Positions 1 to 30,780 of a stretch of DNA of 52,942 nt are shown here, one piece after another. The number at the start of each line of letters is the position of its first letter. Position 1 is the first letter of the stretch. The notes below the pieces were generated by a model. That model had not been told where the DNA came from. It saw nothing but the letters and a program-made list of their open reading frames with translations, and made no database searches. Position numbers and translations under genes: made by a program. This DNA comes from Catajapyx aquilonaris (Eukaryota): the NCBI GenBank assembly GCA_000934665.2, contig JYFJ02002669.1, positions 1 through 52,942 of the forward strand, read 5' to 3'.

Positions 1-112
1 TACAGATCGCCCGGGTTATTTGTACCCCCCCCCGGGGGGGTACAAATAACCCGGGCGATTTGTACCGGGGTGGGTACATTTCGCCCGGGGTACGTTTCGC
101 CCGTTACACCGG
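1..112. mobile_element. Probable terminus of a DNA transposon/MITE with a perfect hairpin
   Basis: 26-bp arms 6-31 and 34-59 are exact reverse complements (atcgcccgggttatttgtaccccccc). Further (t)cgcccggggtac-like subrepeats end in ttacaccgg at 112. The other end lies outside the window. Confidence 0.45.
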
Positions 113-423
113 GAATCTGGCAGCCAATGTCGGAGGAACAATACTAAATACCGTACCTACCAAGCATAAGGTTTTTTTATCTCAGTGAAATTCCCTATGC
201 ATATTGCATAACAATGTTGTGTCAGTGATGCGCAAGTCAAGCACAGGGAAAGACTTGAGTTTCTGTAGTGCTGGTTCTCAGGGAGTTACTCAGATTCTAC
301 AGAGAATTCGTCGTCACCTTATATATGGTTTGAGTCCGTGAGATTGGTGAGAATCATTTTAGTAACATCAGCCATAAAAGGGAATAACCACAAAGTACAA
401 AGACTAAAAGGAAGAAATCTAAT

Positions 424-608
424 ATCATTGGGTGCAGCAGCGCTTGGAGGATACTAATGTCTCTGTGAGCCATAGTTATGCTCTGCTGTGGGTTCTCGTC
501 GTGTTTGCATGTGTTTTCTTGGGGTTCTCCCGTTTCCTCCCACCACCAAAACGCCACTATACGATTACCAGATAGCCTTAGTTGCTTTGGCATAACCAAC
601 AAACTAAC
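424..608 (+). mobile_element. Degenerate SINE (V-/Meta-SINE-like central domain)
   Basis: gtgtttgcatgtg-ttttcttggggttctcccgtttcctcccaccaccaaaa resembles the conserved GGTTTTCTCCGGGT(A/G)CTCCGGTTTCCTCCCAC SINE core; short aac/caaa-rich tail. Confidence 0.45.
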
Positions 609-3600
609 AAACTTCTCCTCTGCAATGAGGTGTCCCCTTGGTATGTCCCAATTCTGCATTTTCAAGCAGGCCCTGAGGACGTCCACCTGATTCAGAGTCA
701 GCCTCTATGGGTAGTTATGAAGATATGCATCACAAGAGTTAGTCGGCGAGTCAGGTTCATCAACATTTTGACGCTCAGGTTTATTAACTGGCGAGTATTT
801 CGACATTGCTCTGTTGTTCTGGATTGTGACCTGTGAGTCTTTACAGTTGGTTTTACTACTGAAGTATTATCCATTTCATTACCAATATTAATGAACAAAG
901 CAAAATCAAATAGTGTGCCAAGCCAGATTTAGTAAGAAGAGTACGGTAACTTAAGAGGTTCGAAAGTGTTTTTCCATTTCGTAAATTTGCTTGGCAGGAA
1001 TAGGCCTTCTTAGTTAGTAGCGCTTCTTCCTTTTTAGCTTCTGTCTCCCTCGCTTGTTCCTACGGATGTGACCGTTCTTCCTGCTTTTCGGCTTCTGCCT
1101 TGTGGTCCTCTTTCGTCCCTTCACATACACCTTGTTTCTATCTTGTGACTCCATCGTCCTCGGCCGTCCTTTGTGCCCTCTCCATGCGAATCTTTATCAA
1201 GAGTAATAGAAAGCTAGAGTGATCCAACCTACCTACAAAAACGTCAATGAAAGCCAGATGTGCATCTCAAACACCTTGAAGGGGCACAGAAGTAAACTGC
1301 TTCCGGTTTAAAAATGACGCCTTTGAATACTTTGGTGCTGTCATGCGAATATGGCAGCCATCAGTGCACCCGATTACATTAGGAAAACATGCTACTCGAA
1401 TTTGTCTCACTTTTATTATTACTTTCTAAGGTAGTGAAAATGCCAATAATATGGAGAGGAAAACTTGGCTATTACCACCACTTAGTCTGCTTTTATAAGG
1501 TTATTATTGTAACATGTTGAAAATTCTAATCACACACCATAATGAGATGAAATTAGGTGCATGCGCGTCACCTTCGAAATAGGCAGTCCTCAATTTACAA
1601 TACAAATGTTTCATCTTCATCATCAGTCGGTATATGCTGTTGGCAGGTTGGGGGATTCTGATGATTCTGGTACATGTCGCATGACTAGTCCCATAGTCAG
1701 ACCTGACTATAGCTTGGGGAACATAGGTTCGTGAAATGATGCACACAATCCTGTCGCTGTCGCTGACGTTTGTTAAGTTCATAATTTGTGTATGAAGCCA
1801 GAAGCCACACTGCAGACCCAGTGTTTCGTTCATGCTGCAGATTGATTTCTGAAAATAGTGTTTGGATCACTGTAAGTTGAGTGGCTTGATCTGCCTGGCC
1901 CGCGCTATCCTTCCCTTGGAGAGAGCCACTTGAGGATTAATTTATTCAGAAAACACTGCAATTAAAACATTTCTGCATGATGCAGATGAATTATGCGCTG
2001 GAATCAAAGGCAATACACCGTCACCTTGTGATGTAATAAGGCATTTATGCAGGTCGATGCCTGCACATGTTGCAGTTGGATCATTATTCTTCATTTCTTG
2101 GCCTTACAAGTTCTGTGATAGGCCAGAACTTTTCCCTTGCAAATTATGTTCATTTTTTTTTCACAAAGTGAGTATGCTGGTGCTCCTCACATTATATGAA
2201 TTTGCAACGTTTCTGTTGGTGAATAGTAATGTCAAAACCTCTTAAATAACTTATAGCACTTAAGTGATGCAATATAAAACTATATTGTCTTGCCAGTTTT
2301 GGTAATGGTTACCATCCCTTCATTGCATTGGCTGCATTGACTACTGCTCTTTTCACGTGGCTTACCACGTCAGTCCGAACTTGCCGTATGTAACCTCTCT
2401 TCTAGATTGCATCCCCTGGTACTACTTCCGGCGATTGCTTCCATCAAGTATCTCCTGTATGGTGCGCCTCGTAGTCATTTTAACTGAAATCCTTTCCTCC
2501 CTTTTGCTCTATAAAAAATTGTATACAATTTCTATCTAGCCCTAAGACTAAAATAGATTGTTATAGCAATTTTTGTCTTAGAGCCACATAACAATGGGGG
2601 TATGTTGATTAGGAGTGACTTATGTCCTTCTTGCATAATTATGTCTCGGCGTGGTTAATTTTTGTGTTCCTTGCCTGATGTACTCGTATGAAGGCCTCAT
2701 TCAACAGTGTTTCACGGGATGAACTGGCGGAAGCTGCATCTTGTATAGCCGGATACTCTAACAGTGGTATCTCCGCTTCTTTAACGACAAATCTACAGTG
2801 AATATCTACAGTACAGTGTCTTGACGCTGGTTTTGTTAGCTGGGTGCGAAGGCTTCTTGCGCTCTTTTTGGAGGATTTCGTGCTGGATTTGGAAGGCGTT
2901 GAAGGCTGCGGCTTGCTCATGAATTTCCATGGACAAAAAAAAAAAAAGAGTCACATTTTGTTGCATAGTGTAATAATTATAATGAGGAATAGGGCATCAA
3001 ATTAATCTGTGCACATTTTAAGTGCAGTACTGTACTACAGTATTATATAATATCATAAGAATATCAGAATACATTATAGGTACATCTATAGGTGTGGTTG
3101 CTAGCTTCGCTTCCCCATGGCTGGTTTCCCTAACAGCGTGAATTTGCAGAAAGAAACGCAGCCGGTTTCGTTTAAGATGCTTTCTTCATGCTTTTTGTAA
3201 CCCAGCAGCGAGGCCTGGGCACAGACCTTTCTGCGGGTCATAAAGGATTGAAATGCGAGGCTGGTCTCCGGCCATGGTTCCAATGGCGCCTATTTGGCAA
3301 GATTCCGGCTCCTAGCGGATAAAGACAGTGAGAGTGGCTCATGTCCCGTCTCCTTGATGAGTAGCCATTGGCGGATTTTTTATTGTTGGGGCATATGAGG
3401 TAGTAGTGGGAGAGAATAGGGAGATATAGTCCTCTCTGATACGGGATCAAGTAAGTTTGTATAGTGGTGCTGCGTCCAGCAGACCACCGTGGAGATGATG
3501 ATGATGGCCAGCTCTCTCGCCACAAGGTTCCTTTCGATTAGCATTCCTGAGATCTGTAGCGGCTTCATCCCTGGGCAGTACAAGATTAAGCCACATAAGT

Positions 3601-3925
3601 CCCATCTTCTTTGAAATGGAACCCTGATTGGTCGACCGGTAGGGGGCAGGGCTAATTTATGGTTGCCCAGGACCACCTCCCAAAACCCTGAAGTTAGCCT
3701 ATCCCTACTGTAACTGCTTCAGTTACTATAATAATTATAGCAATGACATTGAGAAAATAGACCGCTTAATGGGCGGCCATCTGGAATCGAATTGAATGTC
3801 CGGCGCACAGACTTGGATTAATCCAGGTCGTGCTAATGGAAACTAAAAATCGATATTTTTAGATATATCTATCTGATAGTTATCAGAACTGACGCTTTCT
3901 GCATATTGTACGAGTATTTACTTTA

Positions 3926-4300
3926 TTAGTGGCGTATGCCGGCGGGGCGGCCTTCCAGACCCTTCCGTCGCCCTGGATCTGTAAGTTGGTATAGATCTTG
4001 TTCAAAGTTGATGAGGCCATTGGCAATGCATCTTGTCATGGCTTTCTTAGCATTGTTTTTGTTGTATGTCATCCCAGGTACGTCATTTATCATGGTCTTG
4101 ACGTAAACTTCCAAAGCGAGTCGAGTGAGGCCGCCTGCTACTGCCTGGCGGCCCATGGCCTCTACAATTGCATCTATGCCCGCCTGAGTTGCTTTCTTGG
4201 CTGCTATCCTGGTTACTGCTTGGAACGTCAGGCCCAGGCCCGCCGCCTGTGCCGCCGCATTGGCCCCTACCTCGGCGGCGCCCAGGGCTGATGCCACCAT
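3926..4300 (-). CDS. Intact small protein with a linker histone H1/H5 globular (H15 winged-helix) domain and no Lys-rich tail
   Basis: [26 protein letters not shown] aligns without gaps to the H1 pattern [40 protein letters not shown] matches helix 3 (IKLSIKRLVTTGVL), followed by wing-like YQLT. The stop TAA overlaps AATAAA. Confidence 0.6.
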   Translation of the reverse strand: [124 protein letters not shown]

Positions 4301-5048
4301 CAACTCGTAGGGCAGTCCGTGAAGTTGCTAAGGGTGGGCAAAGTGGTGAGATTTTAAAGTAGCAGTGACAGCGGTGACTGCTCCAAGAAAGTAGCAGTGA
4401 CAGTGACAGGGAACGGGTGGGGGGATGGTAGGGGTGTTCCTGATATGTCCCTGGTATAGTCCACAGAGATAAAGATACGTAGTATCTCTAGTACTAGAGA
4501 TGACGTATTGATGGAATCGGGCCGTCCAGGATGCGTACGCAGCTCGTCCATGACAGTGAGGGCAACATGGCCGCTACTCCCTGTATATCACATAGAGTTT
4601 AAACTTCCCTATTGAGACAGTAGCTTCCCTAGACTAGAGACGTTAAAATGTTCAAACCTGAATGTGTCAAATATTGCTGCATATTCATGTCTATACCCAT
4701 CGGTTATTTCCTGGTTTCATCAGTTCTGTACTGGTTGTGTTGGGTTGTCAAATATGGGTTTGCTTGTAACTCGCGATTTTCAGAAGAAACCAAATAAGAG
4801 GAAATGCATTTTCGTGGCAGATTTTTTGTTGTTGTTTAAACTCCGTAAAATTTTGCGAAATCAAATGTCATTTGTCCTTCGTCCAGTGCTACCTCAAGAA
4901 GGGCTTGAAAATTTACCTTTTTGGGGCCTGTCCAAAAATTATTATGGGTCATTTTAAATGTAAGTTACTTGCAGATGTCAGCGTTTACGGAAATATCGTA
5001 ATCATATCTAGTAACATTCAGTCACAATAATTGTTGCATGTTGTGTGG

Positions 5049-5278
5049 CAGGGGTCGAAGTTTGAAATTTTTGTCCAGATGCAAAGTTTGCAGTCCAGAC
5101 TTTAATCTGAAGTGCAAATCGCTTACTAGGGGTGATTAATTTTTAATTACTGGGTATTGCCATGTTTAAAAGCAGCTCAATTGGAGTGCAAACTTTGCAC
5201 TCCAAGGCTCAGTTTGGAGTGCAGATGACAATTTTGGAGTGAAAATTGCACCTTTGCATCCGAATATTTCGCACTTTG
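5049..5278. mobile_element. Possible small MITE with tgca/ggagtgca subterminal repeats
   Basis: Imperfect inverted ends caggggtcgaagt / atttcgcactttg, internal palindrome ggagtgcaaactttgcactcc and repeated ttggagtg motifs. No TSD seen. Confidence 0.3.
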
Positions 5279-8214
5279 ATCTCACTAGGCACATATTTTC
5301 AGATTAAGAGGTACCGGTATTCATCATAACTACGATTCAGGACAAGTGGCTTATTAATCCATAGGGATAGGTTGGGGAACGTCCACTGCCTATTCTCCTT
5401 GCCTCCGCTCGGCAAATAGTCCATAGGTGTGGTATGCTGATGTCTGGCATGGTGTGGTATGCTGATGACTAGAGTCCTTGGTCGTTGGGATAGGAGACAG
5501 ACTAAGAGAGATGCCAGTCTTTCCTCTCTTCTTTTTTTCTCTTCGTTTCTCTCTCCATCTGTCCCACCTTTGAATCTTCTTACAGCCAGATAGCCATAGT
5601 TGCTTTGGCTTCTTCCAAATAAACCAAACCAAACCAACTAGAGTCCTCCTGATTTTTAGGCAAATGCCTATATTTAGTTCCTGAACAATTGGGATCGTTT
5701 TGTGAAGATATATATCCGTTTCATAAGTGCCGGATGTGGAAAATGTCGGGTTTTTACACATGGCCGTGTCCAGTGTTGATTCATCTTCGAGCACGACAAC
5801 GTTTTCGAACATTTTTGTCCAACCACGGCCTCCGAGGCAATAAATCACGACACTTTTTCAGACCGTGGTGACAACAGTCACAGACTGGGTGAAAGACCCT
5901 CCTCCCTGTGGCTTACATGTCAACAGGATCGCTGCTAGTTGCGAATCGCAGCTATTGCGGGAAAATTTAATTGAACCAATCCGGTTACTATCGTTTCATT
6001 ATATGGGACACCAGGTGATGGCGTCACCTCTTCTTAATTGAGGTGAGATAACGCATTGTCATGTTTTACCTGAGCACGGATCAGCTAGATGAAAAAAGTG
6101 ACAACCAGTTATGATATGTATAATTATTCTAAGTGCATGTATCATGAACGAGAGGACAGCACGGACTATAGATGAGAGAAAAAAGTCCTATGGAACGGCT
6201 CTGCCTGTCTGTCTGTGGACAGGTATCAGACAGACAGACAGCCGTGATATAAGACTTTTTATTATTATTTTCGGGTTCCGGGTTCACTATATCCGCCCAT
6301 TCTCCCTGGTATGTAAAAGGCCCCTCGAGTGTTACAGCTATCGTATCAAAGGACGCAAACCATGATGAGGAAGAGGCTTAACAATCGACGGATATTCTTC
6401 ACGTGTGAGTGACACAGCACAGTTAGACTATCTAGTGTACTGTGCACGTACAGTGTATAGTCTTGATTATTTCCGCTGAACATCGGAATCAAACGTGTCA
6501 CTGTCAGATTCGTCGGAGCTGCTTCCTGCAGCATCTCTCTGCTGTTATTATTCAGCTGTAATCAATGAAGATAAATATTTTCCATGAAATTAGTATTTAA
6601 CATTTCATGTGAATCACAAAAGTGCTACCCTACCTGTCCGAATAGCTTGTAAGCTGCTCCCTCCGCAATCATATTTTCAGTATGAGGAAGAGATGTATGA
6701 GTAGATGAGAGGGCGTTTTAAAATCACTAACGCCAAATTTAATTATTACGTACTAAGACCTCTACGTCACTACATGTCAAATTTCAAATGAATCAATGGA
6801 TGACTAGCAAGTAGCTCAGGCATTTTTCCATGACCATGAGATATTTCCAGTTGTGATATTGCATTATAGATATTAATTTACCTGGATTTGTGTTTGATTA
6901 CACAAGGAGTGCTGCTTTCCAGCTGCCCTGTTGGTCGCGTATGGGTAAGGCTAACATAATAATTATGCAGCTGTAAATTAGGCCGTGTGGCGGTGATCAT
7001 AATTATAATTATTTCGGCTGTATTTTGACACTAATTTGCCAAGGTTTGTTGATGGCGCTGCTTGTAGTATGCGCTTGCTGCTTCCTTGTCCTTCTTCACT
7101 TACTTATCTCAGGAGATGTTGTCCCGCGAAAGGAGTTTGTTAAATGCTTTTCACACCTAGGGAAGAATGTTATTTTCCCCCAGAATCCTCTCTAGCACAT
7201 AAATTCGTCCTTTTGAAGATATTGTGCAGCCCAGAGGGGCAAACTAATAGTGATTGGTCGGGTGACCTACCTTTGTAAGCCTTTCAATTCCACAAAGGAA
7301 GCGTAATTGAGCAGTTCTATTGTGTAAATAATATTGGTGCTTTTGTACTATGTGCAAAAAAAAAAGAAGGCTTCCTGCAACAAGTACTCAGGTTTTAAGT
7401 TGATTTTCAGGCCATCTGCAGTTGTACGTCTCTCGACAAGGTCCAGCTATTCTGCACTTTTTCTTGGAATGCCTCTGGAAAGTGATAGATTAGACTTGTG
7501 CTTAGAGCAATCTTAAATTGTCTATTTGATGTGCTTGAGGAGGTATTATATTGTATTTATTTCCCTGCGGGCCCGTGGCCCTTTCAAGGGGACTCACACT
7601 CGCCTGCAACTGTCAATCTCCCAAAAACGAAAGGAAGAAAGAACATGTGCAACTTCCCCCTTCACAGACATTGTCAAGGCAACGTAACAAAAACTATTAT
7701 TTTTTATGACTGTAGCAAAGGTTTACTTGCACAGGGCGGCGAGGGGACTCTTCACCCTGGTGTTCACCCCAGCTCAAAAGTAGCTGGAAGTCTTAGGCCA
7801 CTTTCAGTGCAAATGGCTGAGTGCGTTTACGCAACATGTTCAGCGACAACTGCAAACTGTAATGTAATGTAAAAAGTGAAATGCATTAGAAAGGTTTTCC
7901 GAATCGCTTAGAGAATATCACCTTATCCTGAAAGTGCCTCCAGTTAACCGGATTCATACATGAGACAGCTGAGTGGCGCGGGAGGCAATGTATTTCCGAA
8001 ATTTCTTGTCAACTTTCTAGCATTTTATATGCAAGTAAATATAAGTTAATATTACAATACTGGCACCGAGTGTCAGGTGTACCATACTAGGTCGCATTCA
8101 TGAAGTTGTGTGGGGCGAAATCCACGATCAATTTTTCTGCTTTAACATGGTGTTGTGTCTTCTGCTCTACTTGGAAAGTGTTGTGGAGGGTGGTCACAAG
8201 GGAAAATAATGTAA

Positions 8215-8460
8215 TTATCTACCATGGTTGAGAAGAAACGGTGTTTCCCCTGTTGATTCTTGGACAGCGCCTCTATATGCCATTAACAATGAAGGCATTT
8301 CCGTCACCAAATTTCGTTGGTTACTCTCCACATAATGACTGACCATATCCACTAATGTTTTATTAAAACGCTTTACTAGGCCATTAGCCGCGGGATTGTA
8401 ATAATAAGCGGTTGTGTGTGGAGCTTTGACACTTAATAGTTTGTGTATCTCATCCATCAC
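8215..8460 (-). pseudogene. Gypsy-type integrase core fragment inside copy A
   Basis: TTAY..PAANGLVKRFNKTLVDM ... LLMAYRGAVQESTGETPFLLNHGR, the rve integrase C-terminal motif. Confidence 0.85.
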
Positions 8461-8559
8461 TGAAGCTTAATGACTCCATTTCGGCTGGTCCACTAATTGT
8501 CATCTGGATTTAGGTTTTCGCTGCCTTCCATCACTTCCAGAGTGCAGAGAATATACCGA

Positions 8560-8740
8560 GCTAGGTACTTGAGCTGCAGGTGGAAGGGCAGGGGGTGGCA
8601 ACTGGATGTGCAGTGCTTCGGAATGACAAGAGTCGTGCAAGCTGGCTTGTTCTTGTAGGAACCTAATAGTTTGGCACATGTCTGCATGTCTGTTTGGCCT
8701 CCCAGGAGTCGATCAGCAGCACAAAGTTTTCCTTCATATT
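8560..8740 (-). pseudogene. Tc4/Tc5-like (pogo-related) DDE transposase fragment inside copy A
   Basis: VLLIDSWGGQTD...TLVIPKHCTSSCHPL (CQPL in copy C) matches the LLxDSWxGQ...IPxxxT..CQPLD motif. Confidence 0.7.
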
Positions 8741-9084
8741 TTAGGCCTCCACATTATTGAGGAACTCCTCCACCAAAGTTTTCGACATTTTTCCGGAATG
8801 GCTGTAAGTTGGAGTAACATTGGGAGGTGTGTAAAGCGATTCCTTCACCTGTGGTCCAAAAAATCCGCCCATATCTGGTGCACGGTTATGTTAATTAATA
8901 TGGTTCTTATTGTTAATAAGTGAGGTTAACTTGCATCTCTTTCAATTCTGACTACCCCTTGATGATAGGAAAATGTTGTCATGATTATGATGATGATGAA
9001 TAGTCGCGTAATAACCTGCTGTACAAATTGTGTATCAAAAAAAATTGTCAAGTCACCAACAGTATGTGCATGCTTTGACATTAC

Positions 9085-9765
9085 CTGGCAAAATAAGTGA
9101 AGCCAGCAGCCCGATAGCCTGGCTGCCGGAAACACTGCGACCAAAGCCCCTTGAAGATATTCTCTCTGGATTCCAGTTGGATCCATTACTTCCTCGTACG
9201 TGATTTTTTAGGTAAAGCAGTACCCACATATATGTAGGATTCCATGGTTCTGTTGATCATCAGTACAAACACTGCTGGGAAAACCTGCAAGACATCATCA
9301 AAGATTAGATACGCAATGGAAATTATCATTAGAAAATCTCTGACAATAGTTAATCAGCATTTATTCTGTAATGACACAGGATTTTAATTTTTGTGCATGT
9401 GCAGCACTCAGAGTTCAATAACAACAACAACTCACATATCCACAGGTTGCAACAGCTACAGTGAGCAGCTGGTGATACATTCCTGGAACCGGTTGAAAGG
9501 TTCCATCGATATGGAGCTGAACATTGTCGCCTCTCAGCGCACTATCCACAACCTCTAGTGCCTGAAAATCCAACCACAGTTCTAATTGTTGTGAGGTAGA
9601 ACGGCCCCCCCCCCACCAGTGGTCATGTGGTACTGGGGCAGTTGTAGAAGTGCGGCTCCAAACTCTTCTGCATTTTGGGGCAGTGATGGCATGGCCCCCT
9701 TACGCCGCTTCTGCATGGCGCTTTCCAGTTGGGGAAAGCCAACAAGCACTGCAGCCTGTGGGTCC
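9085..9765 (-). pseudogene. Intron-containing MULE transposase fragment inside copy A
   Basis: Exons encode LHIDGTFQPVPGMYHQLLTV and VFPAVFVLM...VFPAARLSGCWLHLFCQ, bounded by GT..AG. Confidence 0.8.
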
Positions 9766-11391
9766 CTGCAAAACTACGAAGTGAAATTGCTGGTTGCGTT
9801 ATGGGCAAAAGAGAGTTCCTGTGCAAGGCAGCCACAAAATAATTATTATTGAGCATAGAAGAATCACACATATCATGCAATGCTACAACGTGGCACCAAT
9901 AAGAGTAAATAATACATTATTACATGCCGTACAGCAAGTATATTAAGTTACATCAGAGCTGAAATATATTCTTCACTACAGCCAGGCCATGAAGATTAAA
10001 ATTAATGTTAACGACTTGTACTCACCCAACAATATGTTCTTATCAGTCTTCTGACATTTTCTGACATTTTCTGATCCTGGCAAATGTACCAGTCAGTATA
10101 TATGCAATCATGTTTCATTCTGCTCCCAGTAGCAAAGGTCACGTGTTCACTGGAAACAATAATTAAACAATGACAATTGACGTGTGTGTTCACTGAGACA
10201 CTGCACTGAAAGAAAAAAGGCAACACCACTCGTCTTCAGCAAAGTTTAAAGCAAAGACAATGCAACTGCACAATTATCTTCGGTAATTCGAAGCCTAAGC
10301 CAGCACTTACGCGGCAGAACGCCACCTGGCCTCACCAACGGCTCTTCCTAGACAGCACGCGCCATTCTCTAGAATCACACGGACTTCAGTAATCGTGGCG
10401 GCTTCCAATGCAGGAATAATAGAGCTCCAGACATCCAGTCTCTCGTGTAAATGCAGATCAATGGAACCTGCCGACATCGAGTCTGTTATGTGAAATGTGG
10501 ATAATGATAATTTATTAAAATAAAATCTCCCATTTCCCCCCAAATTTATTCGCGTAATATTGCCCTGGCCTGTTTGTGGGCACTGCCTTACAGGATTTCC
10601 TGTCAATTACGACGTGCTTTCGGATGATTCAAAATCACCCTGCTGATGGATGACAGCGTGTGTTTACTTGTTTACATCTTTGCATGTTATATACAGTACA
10701 TTTCGAGCCACCTTCGCTGAAACATTGCTTGGAACTGTTTTATAAAGTGTAAATAAATTTCGATAACTTGTGTGCTAGGCCAGTACTCAAAAGCCTCATT
10801 CGCTCTAAGATCCAGTCATATTAGCGTCATATCCCATTCGCATTTTCTGCTCTATACTCTAATAGGATTATGTTACAAACGGTTCCAAAATTTGATGAAT
10901 CACCGAACTTGATGCAACAGTTGAATAATAATTGTAACCTTACAAACACTGGAGGGGCTCTGTGTACAATATTAATTTAATTAGTTACCCGACGAAGGAT
11001 CTTATGAATGTGAACCCAAACGACTTCATTGTAGTATATATATTCTATTTCAGGTAATTGTCGCTTAGTTGCCATCCAGTTGTTCTTAACTTTTACTTGA
11101 ACCACTACAGTGATATTCTAAGGGACTACTCTGTTTATTAAAGTAGCAGTTGTTGTGTTGATGTCTATGTCATTTAGTTTTTCCTATTAGGTTAAGAGGA
11201 AGAATTCTGGTGACTTCGAAGGTTATTTTGCTCTGTTATTCGGCAATATCAGGTAAATGAAATTGAACGTTTTTGCAGAACAGTCAAGCCGATAACATGG
11301 AAGGCTCTGTCTGTCTGTTCTATAAGACTTTTTTCTCGAAAAAGTCTACACTTGATCTAGTCCCGTCATCTCCGAGAACTCCTCTGATAGC

Positions 11392-13118
11392 TTTTTACAC
11401 ATGGCCGCGTCGTCGGGTGTTGTTACATCTTCCAGCACTACAACGTTTTCGAAAGTTTTTGTCCAACCACGGCCTCCGAGGCAATCTCAACACTTCTTCC
11501 AACCATACTGACAACCAGACCGTGGTCACAATGGTCACAAGAGTCACAGACTGGGTGAAAGAACCTACTCTCTGTGGCCTCCATGTCAACAGGATCACTG
11601 CTAGTTGTGAATCGCAGCTATTGCGGGAAAAATTTCATTGAGCCAATCCGGTTACTATCGTTTCATTATATGGGACACCAGGTGATGGCGTCACCCTTTT
11701 TAATTGAGGCGAGATAACGCATTGTCATGTTTTACCTGAGCACAGATCAGCTAGATGAAAAAAGTGACAACCAGTTATGATAGGTATAATTATTCTAAGT
11801 GCATGTATCATGAACGAGTGGACAGCACGGACTATAGATGAGAGAAAAAAGTCCTATGGAACGGCTCTGCCTGTCTGTCTGTGGACAGGTATCAGACAGA
11901 CAGACAGCCGTGCTATAAGACTTTTTATTATTATTTTCGGGTTCCGGGTTCACTATATCCGCCCATTCCCCCTGGTCTGTAAGAGGCCCCTAGAGTGTTA
12001 CAGGTATCGTATCAAAGGACGCAAACTATGATGACTATATTTCGGTTGTATTTTGACACCAATTTGCTAAGGTTTGTTGATGGCGCTGCTTGTAGTATGC
12101 GCTTGCTGCTTCCTTGTCCTTCTTCACTTACTTATCTCAGGAGATGCTGTCCCGCGAAAGGAGTTTGTTAAATGCTTTTCACACCTAGGGAAGAATGTTA
12201 TTTTACCCCAGAATGTTACTCCTCTCTAGCACATAAATTCGTCCTTTTGAAGATATTGTGCAGGCCACACAGGCAAACTAATAGTGTTTGCTCGGGTGAT
12301 CTACCTTTGTAAGCTATTCAATTCCACGAAGGAAGCGTAATTGACCAGTTCCATAGTGTAAATAATATTGGTAATAATGTATTATGCGCAAAAAAAAAGG
12401 TTTCCTGTAACAAGTACTCAGGTTTTAAGTTGATTTTCAGGCCACCTGCAGTTGTACGTCTCTCGACAAGGTCCAGCTATTCTGCACTTTTTCTTGGAAT
12501 GCCTCTGGAAAGTGATAGATTAGACTTGGGCTTAGAGCAATCTTAAATTGCTTATTTGATGTGCTTAAGGAGGTATTATATTGTATTTATTTCCCTGCGG
12601 GCCCGTGGCCCTTTCAAGGGGACTCACTCGCCTGCAACTGTCAATCTCCCAAAAACGAAAGGAAGGAAGAACATGTGCAACTCCCCCCTTCACAGACATT
12701 GTCAAGGCAACGTAACAAAAACTATTATTTTTTATGACTGTAGCAAAAGTTTACTTGCACAGGGCGGCGAGGGGACTCTTCACCCTGGTGTTCACCCCAG
12801 CTCAAAAGTAGCTGATAGTCTTATGCCTCTTTGAGTGCAAATGGCGGAGTGCGTTTACGCAACATTTTCAGCGACAACTGCAAACTGTTATGTAATGTAA
12901 AAAGTGAAATGCATTAGAAAGGTTTACCGAGTCTCTTAGAGCAAATCGCCTTATCCTGAAAGTGCCTCCAGTTAACAACCGGATTCATACATGAAACAGC
13001 TGAGTGCGGTGCAGAAGCCAAGATATTTCCCAAATTTCTTGACACAACTTTCTAGCATTTTATACAAGCAAATATAAGTTAATATTACGGTACTGGTACA
13101 GAGTGTCAAGTATACCAT
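11392..13118 (+). repeat. Composite repeat unit, copy B (internally deleted, truncated)
   Basis: Matches 5751-6368, jumps to ~7010 of copy A (lacks ~640 bp), and ends at the equivalent of ~8086. Confidence 0.95.
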
Positions 13119-13774
13119 ATTTACAGAAGACAATAATAGTTATCGTTGTACTATATCCTGACACATCATCTTTCTTTATATCTAGCTGTTTTGTAACTAC
13201 AAGCTTCATTCTTAACGGGAATGATTTAATTAAAGTTTTCACTTACATTGCGATGTATACCAAGTGTAACTAATAAATTACGTCCAATCAACAAACACTC
13301 AACACTGATAATATATGCAGGTGGTATCTTCCTATGATGCAGGCGGTCTCAAGTGCGGTCACTTAGGGTATTACATGATATTTCGTAGGCTACATCATGA
13401 TTGTAAGCTACACAAAATTGCTTTCTCAAGATATGCAGCATATGGGGGTATAATAGTAGTGTGACGCTAGATTGTGATTGACTGAAGTCACCATAGGAAA
13501 TGGAGATAGTCCTCTTGTCGTTACATGTTGCTGGACATACCCCGACCCAATTCGGCCTTCCGCCAACTCAAGTATTCGGTAATAAGGAAGCACTTTTGTA
13601 TTGATAAGGTCTGATAGTCCGGGCGGCGCAGATACTGCTCCCCTCCCACCGGAAGTATACTCAGGCGGAACACCTGCTGTCCCAAGAATGAGGATAGGAA
13701 CCTATCCCCAAACTACCCTTGCATGAAATGAGACACAATGTATTGTTTTTCAACCAGAGCTCGACAAGCCAGAG

Positions 13775-15467
13775 TACGGTGCATTAACATTTTGACCCGG
13801 AAATTGATAATAACTAAGGTTCCTTTACAGGGTATGTTTATTGGGTCTTCCTGAAGCCAAAACGAAAGTTCCCCGAAATTCCGGAGGCGGGTTTGGCCGC
13901 CATCTTGGATTATGTAACGGCCATATTGGAAAATTACACGGTACCCTTTCCACACGTGTAGCGGGCGAACCAGTGAAGCTAGAGCGATGATTCCTTCTTT
14001 AACCAGTTCCTATTGAAACGCCCTTTAGAACTGGTGTCCTCGTAACAGTCATATGTGCTGCTTTTATTTTGCAAATGGTCAATGAAGTACTACGAGGTGT
14101 GTTTTTTTCCAGTGTGTGTTACGTTAAATGGTCTTTTACTCAACACTTAGGCGTTTTATGACGAAAAGTTTCCAATAAATATTTCAGAGCAGAGCCTTCT
14201 AAGTATGAAGCGTCTCTTAGGTTTTTCTTGTCCGAATAATACATTCGGTGCTATGGAGGCCCCAACCCGAGCCAGCGCGCGCGCTCGCTACGCTGCCTTC
14301 CTGGCCTATCCTGGACATTTTTTTTTTCACTCATTCACTCACAAGTACCTTCGCTTCAAAAAACAAACAAACAAACAAACAAATGGGGGAGTATTCACAA
14401 GACAGAAATGCATTCACATTTCGCAATTTTATTTATATGACGGTATACAGAGGGGTCAAAAACCAATAGAAATTTTGTGGAACATCGTTCTTACCTTAAA
14501 AAACAAATTGCTGGTCAGGCGTACGAACAGCTGGTTTCAGGTGCATTACCCTCCGATGCCGACGAATGTCACTGCTTAATTTGATGTAGCCACATAATTA
14601 TCTTAGCAATCTTTTTCTCACTTCCCCTCACTTGAAATATGATTGCGCTGGGACCTAAGTTAGTTGCGCCTGCGTCGCTGCGCTGGAGGTGGCCCTTCGC
14701 TGTCAACGTCCTGGGGAGTTTGGTCTGTCTGGTAGTCAGCGTCTACTGGCTCCAGAGCACCGTCCAAGTCTTCTTCCTCAATATCCACAACGTCTGTGTT
14801 GCTGCAGCCGTGTCCAGCGCAGTGACCACACATATGGGAGCATGGTAGCCCACTCCTCCGACATTCACATTTGCTCTCGCATCCAGACTTGCAATTGCAG
14901 GCAATGATGTGGAGGATTCGGTCTGGAGCGGCTTCCTGGAGTGTTGGAACAGGCCGTAGACGACCATTTTCCATTCGCCAGCCCCACTCGATTGGGTCAA
15001 GTTCCACCCCTCTCCACTGCTGGACTTGGTGGTACACGCGCAGGGAGTGCTGGCGAGCAGCTGCGGAAGTATCAATCAATCAATCAATCAATCAAGACCA
15101 TTTAACGTAACACACACTGGAAAAAAACACACCTCGTAGTACTTCATTGACTATTTGCAAAATAAGAGCAGCACATAATATGACTGTTACGAGGACATCA
15201 GTTCTAAAGGGCGTTTCAATAGGAACTGGTTAAAGAAGGAATCATCGCTCTAGCTTCACTGGTTCGCCCGCTACACGTGTGGAAAGGGTACCGTGTAATT
15301 TTCCAATATGGCCGTTACATAATCCAAGATGGCGGCCAAACCCGCCTCCGGAATTTCGGGGAACTTTCGTTTTGGCTTCAGGAAGACCCAATAAACATAC
15401 CCTGTAAAGGAACCTTAGTTATTATCAATTTCCGGGTTAGGCCGAAATTTCTCCTAAATGCACCGTA
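13775..15467 (-). mobile_element. Internally deleted Academ-like DNA transposon with ~340-bp TIRs
   Basis: 13795-14135 is the near-perfect reverse complement of 15094-15437; outer termini tacggtgcatt / aatgcaccgta; the interior holds the Cys-rich C-terminus of the transposase. Confidence 0.75.
14660..15070 (-). pseudogene. C-terminal XPG-associated/Cys-rich (CXC-like) end of an Academ-type protein
   Basis: TSAAARQHSLRVYHQVQQW...DPIEWGW...AAPDRILHIIACNCKSGCESKCECRRSGLPCSHMCGHC; the 5' part is lost at an (ATTG)n tract, 15071-15094. Confidence 0.75.
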
Positions 15468-19329: not shown

Positions 19330-19511
19330 TGTATGGTGTAATGTTAAGGAGACTGTTAAAGATAAGGTGCGTAGGTCTACTCTAAGGTGGTTTGGCCATG
19401 TGGAGAGGATGAAGGAGGAGGAGATTGTGAAGAAGGTTTATTTGGGTGGAGTAGTTGGTAAGAGGGGCAAGGGTAGGCCTAGGAAGACATGGTTGGACCA
19501 GGTGGGTCAGT
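19330..19511 (+). pseudogene. RTE-clade LINE ORF C-terminal fragment
   Basis: LRWFGHVERMKEEEIVKKVY...GKRGKGRPRKTWLDQV. Confidence 0.85.
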
Positions 19512-21077
19512 GTCTCGAATGGAGTAGCGACATCAAGGATCATCAGAATATCAGCACCCTGGGAGATGACCAGGTCCGGCCGCAAGGGGGAACCAGGAAC
19601 CACAGTCTGGTTACAAGACATGATGGAGTGCTTGTAGCCAGCCGCCTTCTTCAAACGCTCCAAAATCGCATCGTGTCGTCGCCGGTAAGCTTCAGAGATG
19701 GGCATGCAGTGGCAAACCACGTGCGGCAGGGTTTCAATTGGGCCGCCACATCTCCTGCATTTTTTGTCAGCCGACTGATCAGTCCACGCCTGAGCACCGC
19801 GAAGGGGAACAATCCCTAGGCGGGCTCGATGAATGAACCGCCAGTCAGCGAATCGAGTGAATTTCCCTTCAGCAATGAAGTGGCAGGAGCTGGAGTCAAG
19901 AGCGACGCACTGCATCACCTTCCCTTGGCTAGGCAGGTCTTGCAGCCGCTGGATCTTCTGCTGCTGGGCCACTCTCCTCAAAGTTGCCACCACCTTCCTC
20001 CTCATCTTCGGTATGACCTTGGCCTCTCCCCGAGCCAAGGCAGGGAGCCCGTTCAAGAAGGACCACTTCACCTGGCTCCTCGTTGAAGCCACCCTCGCCG
20101 AGGTCCACATGCTGGACCTTCGGTTGGTGTCCAACCTGTACGGCCCGTCGTTTCTCCCCGACAGAAACTCCGCAACATCCAGATCGCTCTTCCCCTTACC
20201 AAGACGGCCACACACTGTTGTCATTAGGTTATCAAAAGCAGTGTGGGCCACCTCGTCGTCCGGGGAGGTTAGCAGTTTGAATGCGGAATCAATGATGAAG
20301 AGATCCGACTCCTCCGCAGCAACAGGGATCCCACACGCACCAGCCCGGCGCGAGCCATACAAGTACTCATTGGCGGCTCTGGTTGGGAGAAACAGGGTCT
20401 TCTTGATTAGTGGGCGTAACTCCCGGTCCAACTCGGCCCATGAAGTCTTCGGAAGCAGGCCCATGCGCATGGGGTATACCATAGCTAGATACACAAAAGT
20501 TCTTATTGCATCTAGCCTCTGCCACGGTGCCAGTTCAGAGGTAAGAATCTTCCGACCTATCAAGATAAATTCTTCTATCTTGGCGTACGGAGGGACAACC
20601 TGAAAGCCCACGGGCTTCCCCAAGAACTTTGTGGATTCCCCGTCCCTGAGGCATCTGACCTGATAACCTTCCAAAGTAAAGGCGGTCGGCCTGGTCCCAA
20701 CTGGGGTCCTGCCACACAGGTGGATAGTGGCAGTCTTGGCAGGGTTGACATAGATGGACACCCGGGCCGCCTCCTTCGCCACCGTCTCCATCAGGTCCTG
20801 AAGCTCCTGGGGTGAGTCTGCGATGATGGTAATATCGTCCACGAAGGCCAGGACCTTGTGGACACCGCTGTCAGTCCCTGGTTGAACTGCCCACAGAACG
20901 GGATCGATGGCAAGGTTAAAGAGCAAACAGGACAATGGGTCACCCTGTCTGATGCCATTCAAGACAGGAATCCCTTCTGTGAGCCCCTCTGCTGTCAGAA
21001 TCTTGGTGGAACCACCCCGGCACAAGTCCTCCACGATGGAAGCCACAACTTCTCCCGCTCCGGATGCCAGAAGGGCC
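19512..21077 (-). pseudogene. Utopia/NeSL-clade non-LTR element, minus copy, 3' part (RT, CCHC knuckle, RLE start)
   Basis: GIRQGDPLS, LAFVDD, LAPWQRLDA, ADWRFIHRARL, CRRCGGPIETLPHVVCHC, RHDAI, RPDLV..ILDVATPFE; truncated at the RTE fragment. Confidence 0.9.
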
Positions 21078-22827
21078 TGTAATGCCAGGTTTGGGTACAT
21101 GCACAGGTAAACTTAAGGTGACCAATGAGTGTCGTATTATTGGTATACCTTGCCCTGATTCGGGCTTCCGCTAACCTACTGGCTGGTTAGTGAGAGGGAA
21201 GCTCTTACTAGATTGTTGCCAGGTACAGGGTACAGTTCAAGACTGACAGGTTCAGATATCCGAGCGACGCAGTTGCCTGCTGGCCCTGATATGCTTCGCC
21301 TAGTCAGTGTATGTATGGGCGACGCAGATGCCAGCTGGCCCATCCATCACACGTGACTGGTCAGTCTTGAGTGGACGGATTCGTACATCTGGGCGACGCA
21401 GTTACCTGCTGGCCCTGATATGACGAATGCCTAGTCGGTTGTTGACTTGTCTCTAACTGAATGTTCTGAAAGGTAAATGAAACAACAATAGTCTTTGGTA
21501 TGACCGGGTCCTGAACTCGGCTAAGCAGGTCAGCGCCTTTCTGGAGGTGTTACCTCATCAGAGGCTGGCGACTGACTGAGCCCCGCAGGCTCAGGACACC
21601 TCCTTTTATAGTCCCAGTTTGTTGACAAGCATGCCAATAGAATTATACAAACAATTGAACAACATCAACAAACTAATAGAACAAATGAACAATACTTAAG
21701 CAAGACCTGACAACAACAACAAAACAATTGAATAACATTTAACAAGAACAACAAACATGAACGAAACAATTGAATAACACATCCTGGGCATTAAATTGCT
21801 AATTTTTTTTAAATTGAAGAGTGGGGGTCTAAATGATAGGCCGCCACTCCTTCTTACAACAACAACAATAATGGAATACAATAATTACATACAACAACAA
21901 CAACTTAATAACAATCTTCCCACAATTCTTTAGGGAATTATATACACAAAAAAAACAATTTCTCACAAATTTTTACACAAATCCGGATTTGCACACATAA
22001 AACAATACATACACACAAAAAAAATGAAATGTCACTTCTGCATTCTCACCACGACGAAGGGCTCCCCAACTCGTCATCCAGGTGCAGGTCGACAATGTCT
22101 AGGTCCTGAGACTCGTCCTCCTGGACGACTTCCAGTTCAGTGTCCTCCTCTACGTTGATGTATGGGTCCTGGAACTCCTCCTCCTGGACAACTTCCTCCT
22201 TGGCTCCCTCTGGATTGCCGCTGGCCGGCAGCAACTTCCCCAGCACCAGGGTGTCCATGGGCTGGTTCACCCACTGCAGGTCCATCCATGGTCTATTGCC
22301 GATTATTTGATTGATGATGATTGACTTATTCATTGACGAAATTGGGCCACACATTTGTGTGACATGGTCGTATAGCCACGGGCCTTCCCTGTGTCGGACT
22401 TTACGGGATAACCTGTATTTGGTGTCCACGGGGTGGGACAACACCTGAATGAGGCCAGGCCACTCCTTTTCCTCTTCTAAGGGGAAAGCCTCCCTGAGCT
22501 CTGGATTAAGAGCCAATTCTTGGTTGTGGGACATTGGTGTCGGTGTGAGTGGTAGATAGTATGGAGATGCATTTGAACATGGTGACACCACCTGAAGTGT
22601 TTTAATTGGGGTCTGTCGTAAGACTCGGTAAAAAAAAAATATGGAGGGAATAGAAAGGTTCTCACCTCAGGAGACATGAGAGAACTTATGCCATTATTCT
22701 CTGTAATCCTGGGAGGTGTAGCTGGTAGAGGGCTTAGCATAGCTGGAGGATGGTATGGTCTGTACGACTTGCCGCCCCTGGGATGTAGTTTCTTCCCCAT
22801 CTTTCTTCTCCGAAGTCAGGCAAATGG
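21078..22827 (-). mobile_element. 3' end of an LTR retrotransposon, copy 2, inserted in the Utopia RT; LTR 21078-21795
   Basis: LTR bounded by T(T)TAATGCCCAGG ... CCTGGCATTACA, TATA ctataaaagg near 21605. About 90 aa of Utopia RT are missing at the junction. Confidence 0.8.
22046..22800 (-). CDS. Predicted spliced 226-aa accessory ORF of the LTR element (exons 22800-22666 and 22591-22046)
   Basis: GAG|gtgaga...cacttcag|GTG, a 74-nt phase-0 intron, joins MGKKLHPRGG...MSPE in frame to VVSPCS...LHLDDELGSPSSW*; the C-terminus is conserved in copy 1. Confidence 0.55.
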
Positions 22828-23390
22828 TTGAGCGTGAGATAGAAATGGGCCGCCAGTTAGCAGGATCGTCGACACTGCCCTTCTTGTGAATAAGGATGGT
22901 GGTCGAACTACCCCAAGCTTCCGGGATACGCCGGTGACTCAGGCACATATTGAACAGTGTCGAAAGGAGCACCGCGTCAGGGTCAAGTCTTTTCCAATGA
23001 TGGTAGGACAGCCGATCTTCCCCGGGAGCTGAGTTTCCGCACCGGCGCAGTTTAGCACAAACCTCTTGAGAAGTAAATGGTGACATGGGCATCTCAGGGC
23101 GATCCCGACGCCACGGGTAAAACGAAGGATCCCACGGTCTCTCCTCGTACGCCCGCCTAAAGTAATCGTGCAACAGGTCAGAGCCAATGGCGCATCTGGT
23201 GCCTTCGCCTTGAAGAATTAACCGGGTGGCCCGTCTCCTGTTACGCCGGTATAGGGATTGGATACTCTTAGGATCCTCCACATCTATGGCCCATCTTCTT
23301 CCAGTTTGTCCCTCTGGTCGCGGAGGGTTGGTGCCCGATGGTGCTGATGTTGCTGCCATGACGTCCTCCTTCATGTACTCTGAAGTACAC
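22828..23390 (-). pseudogene. Utopia/NeSL minus copy, 5' part (pre-RT and RT domains 0-1)
   Basis: IDVEDPKSIQSLYRRNRRRA...NSAPGEDRLSY..WK...IPEAWGSSTTILIHKKG...NWRPISI. The 23390 boundary is approximate. Confidence 0.85.
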
Positions 23391-23700
23391 AGGCCTGGCG
23401 GTGGAGGTGTCAATGGTGTGTGCGATGATGCTGGTGGTGCTGGCTCTCTAGATGAAGCTCGTACTGCGGTACTGTACGACGCCCCCTCACCGGCTGGCTT
23501 CGCCCTCTTCGGCTCTCTGCCTGAGCTTGACAGCCATGTTGATCCTATCCAGATCGCGATAGCGGATGACCAGGAATCAGTAGATGATTCCAGTGAATTC
23601 ACTGAAGATGTGGACCCGCCACCAACTATGCTTACCACGACTGAGGAACCGCCTTTCCCGGGGGAAGAGCTTTTGACCCCAGAGGGACGTACCCCCATCC

Positions 23701-25720
23701 ATGACCACCTTCCAGGTCCTCGCCAGGATTTCCTATCTTGGCAGAACTGAGGAGGCCTGGACCAGATTTGAGCAGCTTCTGGAGCGTATTTCCAGCACGG
23801 CCCGGGAGGCAGCTCGGATTCCGCAACCATCAGGCGATAGGGGCTCCGCGAAGAAACCGATTGACGTGGAGGATCCCAAGGTGATACAAAGCCTGTATAG
23901 GAGAAACAGAAGGAGGGCCATCCGTCTCCTGCTGGAGGGGGAGGGCCAGAAATGTGACATTCCTGCCGATCGTCTCGAGGCCTCTTTTACGGAGGCCTAC
24001 GGCGCTAAACCTTGGGACCCGACTTTTTACGTAGCAAATAAGACTAGACCCGAGATCCAGATGCATGAGTTTACTCCAGGAGAGGTCTGGGCCAAAGTGA
24101 GGAGGGCGGAGAATACGGCGCCCGGGGATTATTCCCTCACATACCAGCACTGGCTGCTTTTGGATACGGAGGGAGTGTTGTTGGCCGCTGTCTTCAACAT
24201 TTGCCTCACCCAGCGGAGGATCCCGGCCCTCTGGCGTCACTCCACGACCATTTTGATCCCGAAGAAGGGTGACCTCGCTGAGCCGGGAAATTGGAGGCCA
24301 ATAGCCATCACTCGTACGATCACCAAGCTGTACACCGGATGTCTATCTGGCCGGTTGGCAAGATGGTTGGAGACGTATGAGGTCCTGCATCCAGCCCAGA
24401 AGGGTTTCATGCCTCATGATGGGGTCGTGGAGCACAATCACGTCTTGCAGGCTCGGATGGAGCAGACGAAGAGGGAGAAGTCCGATGTTTGCATAGGCTG
24501 GTTGGACTTCACTGCCGCTTACACCTCTGTTCCACATGGGGCTCTGAGGGCAGCCGTGGAGTCCGTTGGGGCCGGGGAAGCCTTCGTGGAGGTGGTTGCT
24601 GATCTCTGTCTTGGAGGAACCACCAGAGTAATGACGGGAGAAGGACTGACCAACCCTGTGCCAGTAGACAACGGCATTCGCCAAGGGGACCCTCTCAGCT
24701 GCTTGCTTTTAAACCTGGCCATCGACCAGGTGCTGTGGACGATCCAGCCAGAGGGAGGCCACGAAACTCATCGGGTGTTGGCTTACGCTGATGATGTCAC
24801 TTTGATTGCTTCTACACCTGATGAGTTGCAGGATGCTCTGGAAACGGTGGCGCGAGAAGCAGCGAGAGTCTCAATTATGGTGAACCCCCGGAAGTTTGTC
24901 ACCCTCCACCTATCGGGCAGGAAACCGGCTGGAGTTCGACCGACTGAGTTTCAACTCGAGGGGAGAAACATCAGGGCGCTAGCCGAGGGGGAGGCGACCA
25001 AATTTCTGGGAGTTCCTGCGGGCTTCAGGGCCGTTCCAGAGGCTGGGATTGCTGACAACTACATTAAGGTGGGGGAGAAGATAATGCGGTCCATGCTAGC
25101 CCCGTGGCAGAGACTGGACGCTTTAAAAACGTTCCTATACTCCGCCATGGTTTTCCCCATGAGGACAGGCCAGCTTCCTAAAGCAGAGTGGAAGAGGGTG
25201 GAGAGGCATCTGCGTCCACTTATCAAAAAGACTCTGTGCCTGCCCATTCGTGCGACTAACTAATATCTCCATGGGAGCCGTCGTTTCCAATTATTATCAC
25301 AAACGTCATGATGCGGTGGTTGGGAGGGTGAGGCGGGCGGCGGAGGCGAAGTTCACAGTCGTGGGGGACAACCAGAAGATCCTGGACGACTGTCAACTGA
25401 GACCGGTCCAGAAGGATGAGGTGCCCATCATCATCGACGTGGCCATACCCTTCCAAAACAGACTGGAGGCGTTGGCGGAGGCTCGACAGCGGAAGGAGGT
25501 CAAGTACGCCGCCTTGGCTGAATCCTTGAGGAAGAAGTATGGACGAGTGGTTGTGGAGCCCATCATTGTGGGAAGCTGGGACATTCAGAACGACAAGATT
25601 TTGAGGAAGTTCTGTGGTCGCACTTACCTGAGAATGTTGCGTAGATTGTGCGTGTCCAATGTTATTGCGTGGTCACGAAAATGTTATATTGATCATTTGA
25701 CCAACGTGCACCAGCAGTAG
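23701..25720 (+). pseudogene. Utopia RT-RLE polyprotein, disabled
   Basis: Full RT (QKGF, WLDF, GIRQGDPLS, LAYADD). Stop at 25261 where the minus copy has Glu (ANEYL); CCHC region deleted; RLE IIDVAIPF..KEVKY retained. Confidence 0.9.
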
Positions 25721-27576: not shown

Positions 27577-28410
27577 TTTGCGCCTCGCGCGCGAATCCCA
27601 GAACCAAAAGTAACAGTATAAGCGATAAAACAAAATAATCTTAGAGCAGTGCTGCACCTTGATCCTGAGGTGCAAATAAGGGCGTTGCAGGGTGTGAGTG
27701 CTCAGGCCGACCCCGCTGTAATGCTTGCTGCATTACAGGATAGGCTTGCGGGTATGGCCGTGGCCAGGCCGGTGAACGAGGGTGTTGTCCCGGAGAATGT
27801 GCCTATTAATGGTGGGTACGATTCGGGGGGTACACAGTCGACATCAGTACAGGGTACTAATGTGACTGATCGGCGTGATGGACCGACGGTGTCCAATACA
27901 TCGACTGGTGTCGATGGGGCAATATTACAACAGCAGCAGTTGGCATTGACACAAGGTGTTAAGGGTTGCAGGTCGGTATAACATACAGCAATTCAATAAG
28001 AGCCCAACAAGACAGGGCCCATGTTCTATTGATGCTCACTTCAAGGGAGGGAAGTAACATGCGGGATGGGGCATGGGTACTCTGTAGTTTCCAGGAAGTT
28101 GGTGTAGTAGGACTGCCGGCAAAGTCATGATAGCCTGCTCGAAGAGGCGGAAGCTTCTGCTTCTGCTGCATGGTTTGCTGGGGAGAAAAAAAGAGGCTCC
28201 TGCTGAATGGGAGGATGTGCTGGGTTCGCAAAACCTGGCAGCTCCGAAAGGAACATGGCCACTACAACACACTGGTAAGACAATCAACTTCATCAGGAAT
28301 TGATACATTTCTACAGGTGCGTCACAAAACTATTTCACATTACTGCTGTCATTACTTACATACATTTTATTAAAATTGATGAAACTGGGCATTTGCGACT
28401 GCACATGTAC

Positions 28411-29489: not shown

Positions 29490-30780
29490 ATAGTACCTAA
29501 ACAGATTGGCGAACAACGCCGGCAGACTGGCACCAGGAGGATCAACGGAGCTGAATGAGAACTTTAAGAGCATGGTGGTGAACAAGATCAAAGTTTTATG
29601 GCGGAAGTAATTCGATGAACACTCGGGTTTCGGCTGCAGTTGGCCAGAAAAACGTGGGAACGGTGTTTGCCAGCGGGACTTTTGAGATGCTGTCCCTGTC
29701 CCCTGGTTCTGTAACCTAAAGAAGTATGAAAAGAAAAGATGCTCTGAGGCTAAAAATGAAGCCATTGAAGGGAACGGAGGCTTTCAAAGCACGGCGGTTT
29801 TTTTTTTTGTTGTTGTTAAAAACGAAGAAGTCGACAACGCCAAGGAATGAAACGGTGGGAAGGTGCTTCTTACATGGCCGATGTTGGAATTTTTCAGCCC
29901 CCTGTTGTATCCAGTCCGCACCTAGGAGGAGAGGGCCCAGTTCCAGATGACAGAGTGCTAGTTTATTTTGACCTGGAAACCAGTGGGCTGGCCATGCGAT
30001 CGGAAATACTCAAGTGGCAGGTAAATGTGCTGGTTCTGAAACACCACCATGTGTACTGCAAACCATTACGTGGGATCTCAACTGCTGTCACAGGTCTGCC
30101 AGCAGTGGAAGGAGACTTATACCTTCATGGGCAGCGTGTTTCGGTTGTCCCACTTAAAAGTGCACTGCAGCAATTTATTGACTTCTTAAAAACCCTTTGG
30201 AATCACATTGTGTTAGTGGGGCACAATTCTTTTATATTTGATATGTCCCGACTTCTTTGTGCACTGCGTAACAATGGACTCAGTGATGAATTCGAGAGTG
30301 TTGTTTGGGAGTGTAGCAGACACATATCCGCTGATGAAGGATCTCCATAAGGAAGACAAAGAAAAGTGGAAAAAGGAGCCTTCATACAAATTGTCCTCTC
30401 TGTCTGAAAAGTATGATGAAGGATATGACCCCACGGGTGATGTGTTAGCTCTGGAAGGTGTTTGCTTATCACAGCAATTGAATGTGGAATTACTAACTCA
30501 TTGGATAACATTGTCCTACTATCTTGATAGGCAACTAACTAAAGCCAGAAAGTCTCAACTTGTACAGAGACTTGCACCTCTTGGTGGTTTTGTGTCAAAA
30601 TCAATGGTACACAAGATTGCTGCTGCAGGTATCACAATACAACAACTAAGAGACTGCATCAACCATGGAGGGGAGAAAGGTGTTGAATTGTTTATGAAGG
30701 AAAATGTTGGAGGAGGGAAACCGGCCGTGTGACTAAATCACGATGGGTTATTGACTAGGTGGTCTGGTTTCTGAGGCAAT
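29490..30780 (+). pseudogene. Kolobok-like transposase tail followed by a DEDD exonuclease (PML-C/exuperantia-like)
   Basis: LAPGGSTELNENF...FYGGSNSMNTRVSAAVGQKNVG, then VYFDLETSGL, LVGHNSFIFD, SYKLSSL, GDVLAL; frameshifted. The superfamily call is inferred. Confidence 0.6.

Follow-up and report, generated by a model that had tools for sequence, protein, structure and literature searches.

A low-copy open reading frame with coding-type periodicity and a possible winged-helix module in a transposon-rich contig of Catajapyx aquilonaris

We analysed a stretch of 52,942 nucleotides from Catajapyx aquilonaris (contig JYFJ02002669.1; hereafter the window), which is eukaryote-like and transposon-rich, and found on its minus strand an uninterrupted open reading frame (ORF) of 124 codons at 3926..4300. 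The ORF carries a codon-position bias of the coding type and lies in a single- or low-copy segment between repeats. Our interpretation, held with moderate confidence, is that the ORF is, or was until recently, a true single-copy coding unit; its product would be a small helical protein whose C terminus probably contains a winged-helix-type module. The ORF would be either a small gene without introns or a gene's final exon. Residues 52-121 of its product probably fold as a winged-helix-type DNA-binding module, with a putative recognition helix near residues 91-104 and a putative wing near residues 105-121; through this module the product, if expressed, would bind nucleic acid.

The ORF extends from an ATG at 4300-4298 to a TAA at 3928-3926. 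The first-pass annotation of this DNA, which named no strand, had described an uninterrupted 124-codon ORF with nine open codons upstream of the ATG and a stop overlapping AATAAA, and our reading of the minus strand agrees on all of these points. The upstream codons bring the stop-to-stop frame to 133 codons, reaching 4327, where a TAG (4330-4328) closes it; around the stop, the minus strand reads CAC TAA TAAAG, with AATAAA at 3927-3922. The features of the ORF and its immediate surroundings are as follows.

3926..4300, minus strand: ORF from ATG to TAA, 124 codons plus stop, with a poor start context (T at -3, G at +4)
4301..4327, minus strand: in-frame open extension of nine codons (QLHGLPYEL) upstream of the ATG, read from the sequence
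3922..3927, minus strand: AATAAA overlapping the TAA stop
3965..4174, minus strand: winged-helix-like stretch, residues 52-121 of 133, with profile matches below cut-off
4328..4350, minus strand: possible 3' splice acceptor, the TAG at 4330-4328 after a tract with 16 pyrimidines in 20 bases (4350-4331) that starts CTCAC
4484..4501, no strand: perfect 18-bp palindrome (self-match 100%) where the unique ORF segment meets the repeated flank

A heterozygous C/A site at 4304, within the upstream extension, changes Glu to Asp, and a 16-bp exact direct repeat occurs at 4356-4371 and 4388-4403. The product, of about 124-133 residues, is helical, Ala/Gly-rich and Ser-poor, with one Ser and seven Lys in 133 residues and with varied Ala codons. 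Because the pyrimidine tract and TAG resemble a 3' splice site, the ORF may form a terminal exon instead of an intronless gene, provided that this putative acceptor is used.

A serious rival reading, in our view somewhat unlikely, is that the frame stays open by chance in a patch of locally high G+C content, that it makes no protein, and that its likeness to the linker-histone (H15) domain is a composition-driven coincidence caught by eye. The length of the ORF is not beyond chance and is unremarkable alone. On average, 4.8 frames of at least 133 codons were expected by chance per window (Markov-1 model, 30 simulations) and 25 were observed, many of them sitting in transposons. When 2000 segments of 668 bp were simulated with the local composition, 5% of them contained such a frame, and a second frame of 134 codons overlaps the ORF on the same strand. 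Nor does the ORF coincide with a CpG island (CpG observed/expected 0.73, against a window median of 0.68), in keeping with a chance frame.

Codon-position composition, by contrast, argues against chance. The ORF displays the canonical pattern (G1 0.43, G2 0.18, T1 0.08), which none of 380 simulated ORFs of at least 120 codons matched. This first periodicity score had been picked post hoc, with the data already seen, and for that reason we also computed a generic measure, Cramer's V between nucleotide and codon position. Cramer's V was 0.201 for the ORF, a value reached by none of 1037 simulated chance ORFs of at least 120 codons (maximum 0.185). Among the 69 window ORFs of at least 100 codons, the ORF ranked fourth in periodicity, the higher three all lying in the transposon-rich 19-28 kb part. 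Residues 46-125 by themselves gave a V of 0.199, which 1.25% of simulations attained.

The bias is also bounded by the ORF. Six 150-base windows inside it had V values of 0.17-0.31 (0.22-0.31 in five of them), compared with 0.07-0.17 over the 300 bp on each side, and the periodicity climbs on entry into the ORF from its 5' side and declines at the 3' end. We found no tandem repeat within the ORF, which rules out a tandem-repeat origin of the periodicity. Since this strong periodicity is unmatched in simulations and confined to the ORF, we take the ORF to be a genuine or recently genuine coding unit; the evidence is fair that this frame is in coding use or was so until recently, with the unit beginning near 4300-4327. 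Periodicity of this kind is a sign of coding origin, not of present function. The single Ser in 133 residues likewise speaks against a chance frame.

Three-base periodicity occurs elsewhere in the window as well. A patch at 3443-3637 (minus strand), mostly inside the repeated left flank, has V values of 0.23-0.26 in another phase and may be a remnant of the coding sequence of that flank repeat. At 27622-27978 (plus strand), an ORF of 119 codons equals the ORF studied here in the strength of its codon-position periodicity (V 0.222).

The resemblance to a linker histone was reproduced by profile searches, at scores below the curated cut-off. Linker_histone (PF00538) was the top Pfam match of the 133-residue frame, aligning residues 52-106 with model positions 6-59 of 74 (E 0.0019, 18.8 bits); the match had an E of 0.0016 (19.1 bits) with the 80-residue domain (residues 46-125) and an E of 0.0036 (17.9 bits) with the 124-residue ORF. 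All of these scores fall under the PF00538 gathering score of 22.4 bits, which places the ORF outside the family by that measure. The H15 globular pattern that the first-pass annotation had picked out by eye thus stands as the best Pfam match, at sub-threshold strength. Residues 91-121 were further aligned, in one consistent register, with the helix-3/wing end of the models of HemN_C (PF06969, E 0.10-0.13), HTH_45 (PF14947, E 0.16) and Sso10a_fam (NF053610, E 0.044); HemN_C is, we assume, a member of the HTH clan. These matches are far under their cut-offs, weak and mutually non-independent. As for the fold guess, then, PF00538 and three winged-helix families point weakly but consistently in the same direction, all of them under curated cut-offs.

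Controls put these scores into proportion. In a scan of the 106 ORFs of at least 50 codons in 1-14000, the PF00538 match was the best (E 0.0019), and the runner-up had an E of 0.016; about one Pfam match at E 0.002 is expected by chance given the 710 window ORFs of at least 40 codons. A PHROG of unknown function (1234 positions) matched residues 20-116 at E 0.0017, a score equal to that of the H15 match and incompatible with it, so composition can yield such scores, as the chance reading holds. We also considered an internal duplication, the first-pass annotation having suggested a second degenerate H15 start upstream. Residues 1-66 matched no Pfam family at E<=10, and a BLASTP comparison of residues 1-48 with residues 49-133 gave an E of 8.8; we therefore rejected both the duplication and the second H15.

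Structure prediction yielded models of low confidence, a further point in favour of a chance frame. Single-sequence AlphaFold gave helices throughout and no strands, with a pLDDT of 57.2 for the 133-residue frame and of 67.6 for the domain (residues 46-125). The domain-only model had three helices where PF00538 aligns them and helices, not strands, at the wing. With these models, Foldseek found nothing in the PDB at E<=0.001, and the best VIA-align result (Z 5.4) was to an unrelated chain, with no H1/H5 or clear winged-helix match. The models are too weak for the absent fold match to exclude a winged-helix fold.

Searches for relatives returned none, again as a chance frame would predict. No relative of the ORF was detected by exhaustive HMMER over 1.84 billion representative proteins at E<=0.001, by word-indexed protein searches at near and longer lengths, or among IMG/VR viral contigs and JGI metagenome contigs, and the window contains no paralogue. 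When the 124-residue ORF and the 80-residue domain were compared with the PDB by phmmer, no H1/H5 chain appeared at E<=10, the sole matches being glutamate dehydrogenase (E 0.16) and SMC3 (E 1.2). In the ESM Atlas, the recognition score was 2268, under the mark of 2300 that 91 out of 100 known-family proteins reach; the best feature score for the ORF was 0.77, and the domain had no usable named match. These searches exclude close relatives only, because a very divergent winged helix would fail to reach E 0.001 against so large a library.

The copy number of the ORF was assessed from sequencing depth, summed over Logan contigs at a likeness of at least 85%, in bins of 167 bp; the contigs came from four DNA runs of a single sample, and the edges of the single- or low-copy segment are known to this bin size. 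In DNA run X5, there was essentially no cover over the ORF. The depths along the region were as follows.

3002-3502: depth 37 in run X1, single-copy baseline
3503-3669: depth 924 in run X1, repeated flank
3670-3836: depth 236 in run X1, repeated flank, with GCGGCCAT at 3773-3780
3837-4504: depth 50-70 in run X1, ORF segment, single or low copy
4505-5005: depth 280-352 in run X1, repeated flank, with GCGGCCAT at 4567-4574 (minus strand)
5006-5840: depth in the thousands in run X1, very high-copy repeat

With a depth of 50-70 where the baseline is 37, the ORF is of single or low copy number; it is enclosed by repeats, the flanks of its segment being present in 6 to more than 1000 copies. At a likeness of at least 85%, no more than about one additional partial copy of the ORF segment exists. 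Allelic bubbles would account for the slight excess over 37; heterozygous sites are present at 4304, 4339, 4387 and 4389, and contigs break at 4262-4357.

The two flanks of the ORF are unrelated, sharing no match longer than 9 bases, and no convincing inverted repeats bracket it; terminal inverted repeats were thereby ruled out. The inverted motif GCGGCCAT, which the first-pass annotation had labelled YY1-like, does occur on both sides and on opposite strands (3773-3780, plus; 4567-4574, minus), but both copies sit in the repeated flanks, outside the unique ORF segment. The window holds four copies of the motif, compared with 1.11 expected, and 2 out of 100 shuffles attained four. Among the neighbouring repeats, those at 5006-5840 and 6175-6341 reach summed contig depths of up to ~50,000, against the baseline of 37. 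The repeat at 5006-5840 carries a minus-strand ORF at 5390-5857; the peptide motif at the N terminus of its product is found again at 11349-11486, also on the minus strand.

These data bear on a second alternative, namely that the ORF is carried by, or left over from, an unclassified mobile element or endogenous virus, the remaining copies of which have fallen below 85% identity. We regard this as quite unlikely. The position of the ORF between repeats in a transposon-rich window is in its favour, as is the G+C content of the ORF (0.56), which resembles that of the window's transposon ORFs (0.53-0.59) rather than the background (~0.37-0.45); the stop overlapping a poly(A) signal would suggest a compact gene. 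However, the segment is of low copy number and has unrelated flanks, and multiple copies sharing flanks or terminal repeats, as expected of mobile cargo, were not seen at a likeness of at least 85%. The hallmark genes that would adjoin the cargo of a Maverick/Polinton, adintovirus or other mobile element (polymerase, integrase, capsid, packaging ATPase, protease) were likewise absent next to the ORF. No virus or Maverick hallmark family was found at E<=0.05 among the 106 ORFs of at least 50 codons in 1-14000, no such gene lies within 10 kb of the ORF, and among the 22 ORFs scanned out of 36 of at least 120 codons, none with a virus or transposon hallmark family adjoins it. Together with the lack of a relative in IMG/VR, these results leave the first-pass proposal of a virus- or transposon-borne mimic or antagonist of H1 unsupported. 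A single copy, which had been named beforehand as evidence against mobile cargo, is what the depths indicate, as far as contigs show.

The transposon domains nearest to the ORF (RVT_1, MULE and DDE_3) are at least 15 kb away. Besides a MULE fragment, a DDE_3 transposase fragment and a PML_C-like ORF, the window contains two long reverse-transcriptase frames.

19385-21112, minus strand: reverse-transcriptase (RVT_1) ORF, open frame of 576 codons
23677-25260, plus strand: reverse-transcriptase (RVT_1) ORF, open frame of 528 codons

With open frames of this length, the earlier statement that nearly all other coding remnants in the window are broken was too strong. The two frames belong to non-LTR retrotransposon fragments in opposite orientation at 19385-25720. 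The first fragment closes with a Cys/His motif and then a nuclease-like stretch, which, judged by eye, may be a restriction-like endonuclease of the R2/Hero type. At 29820-30729 (plus strand), there are two overlapping open frames, the second of which matches PML_C below threshold (23.7 bits, cut-off 27.1; E 5.5e-05); the pair may represent a single exonuclease-like gene split by a frameshift. Scans for Rfam families and tRNAs in the window returned nothing, and a scan for sigma-70 promoters and terminators, which is not relevant to a eukaryote, stayed at chance level.

That the ORF is a true H1/H5 linker histone minus its Lys-rich tail, binding the nucleosome dyad and competing with H1, we hold to be very unlikely: PF00538 is its top Pfam match and is covered at model positions 6-59 of 74, but the score is under the gathering cut-off, phmmer retrieved no H1/H5 chain, and the product has neither a tail nor more than 7 Lys in 133 residues. 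A more elaborate idea, to which we assign a still smaller probability, is that of a lineage-specific single-copy gene whose product, an H15-type winged helix that lacks a tail and follows an Ala-rich helical arm, would occupy the linker-histone site of the nucleosome without compacting chromatin, acting as a natural H1 competitor; such a gene may stem from a captured or very old mobile-element gene.

Our preferred reading remains a single-copy coding unit with a probable winged-helix-type C-terminal module. If expressed, the ORF would yield a small, orphan DNA-binding protein for which relatives are not detectable, and would bear on the birth of chromatin-binding genes in repeat-rich DNA. So far, it is an unverified candidate. 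It matters chiefly as a caution for reading such DNA: the H15 pattern caught by eye amounts to a sub-threshold match, and codon-position periodicity is an independent, testable sign of coding origin.

Among known systems, a virus-borne linker histone of the type envisaged by the first-pass annotation does exist. According to one study, Medusavirus encodes a linker histone beside four core histones in a giant-virus genome (PMC11500106). Unlike that gene, the ORF has no virus genes nearby and no relative in viral contigs. The generic winged helix-turn-helix families (HTH_45, HemN_C and Sso10a_fam) meet the product over the same residues, 91-121, in a consistent register and with weak scores, and these families are prokaryote-centred. 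The C-terminal domain has been described as one part of the tripartite organisation of H1, and as essential if H1 is to bind chromatin with high affinity (PMC7334387, PMC9243160). The product differs from linker histones H1/H5 in having no Lys-rich, disordered C-terminal domain, only 12 residues following residue 121, which bears out the earlier claim that a Lys-rich tail is absent. It also leaves the wing positions 60-74 of PF00538 unaligned. The likeness lies in the globular domain, for which the H1/H5 family (PF00538) is the best in Pfam and for which the domain-only model of the ORF has helices at matching positions.
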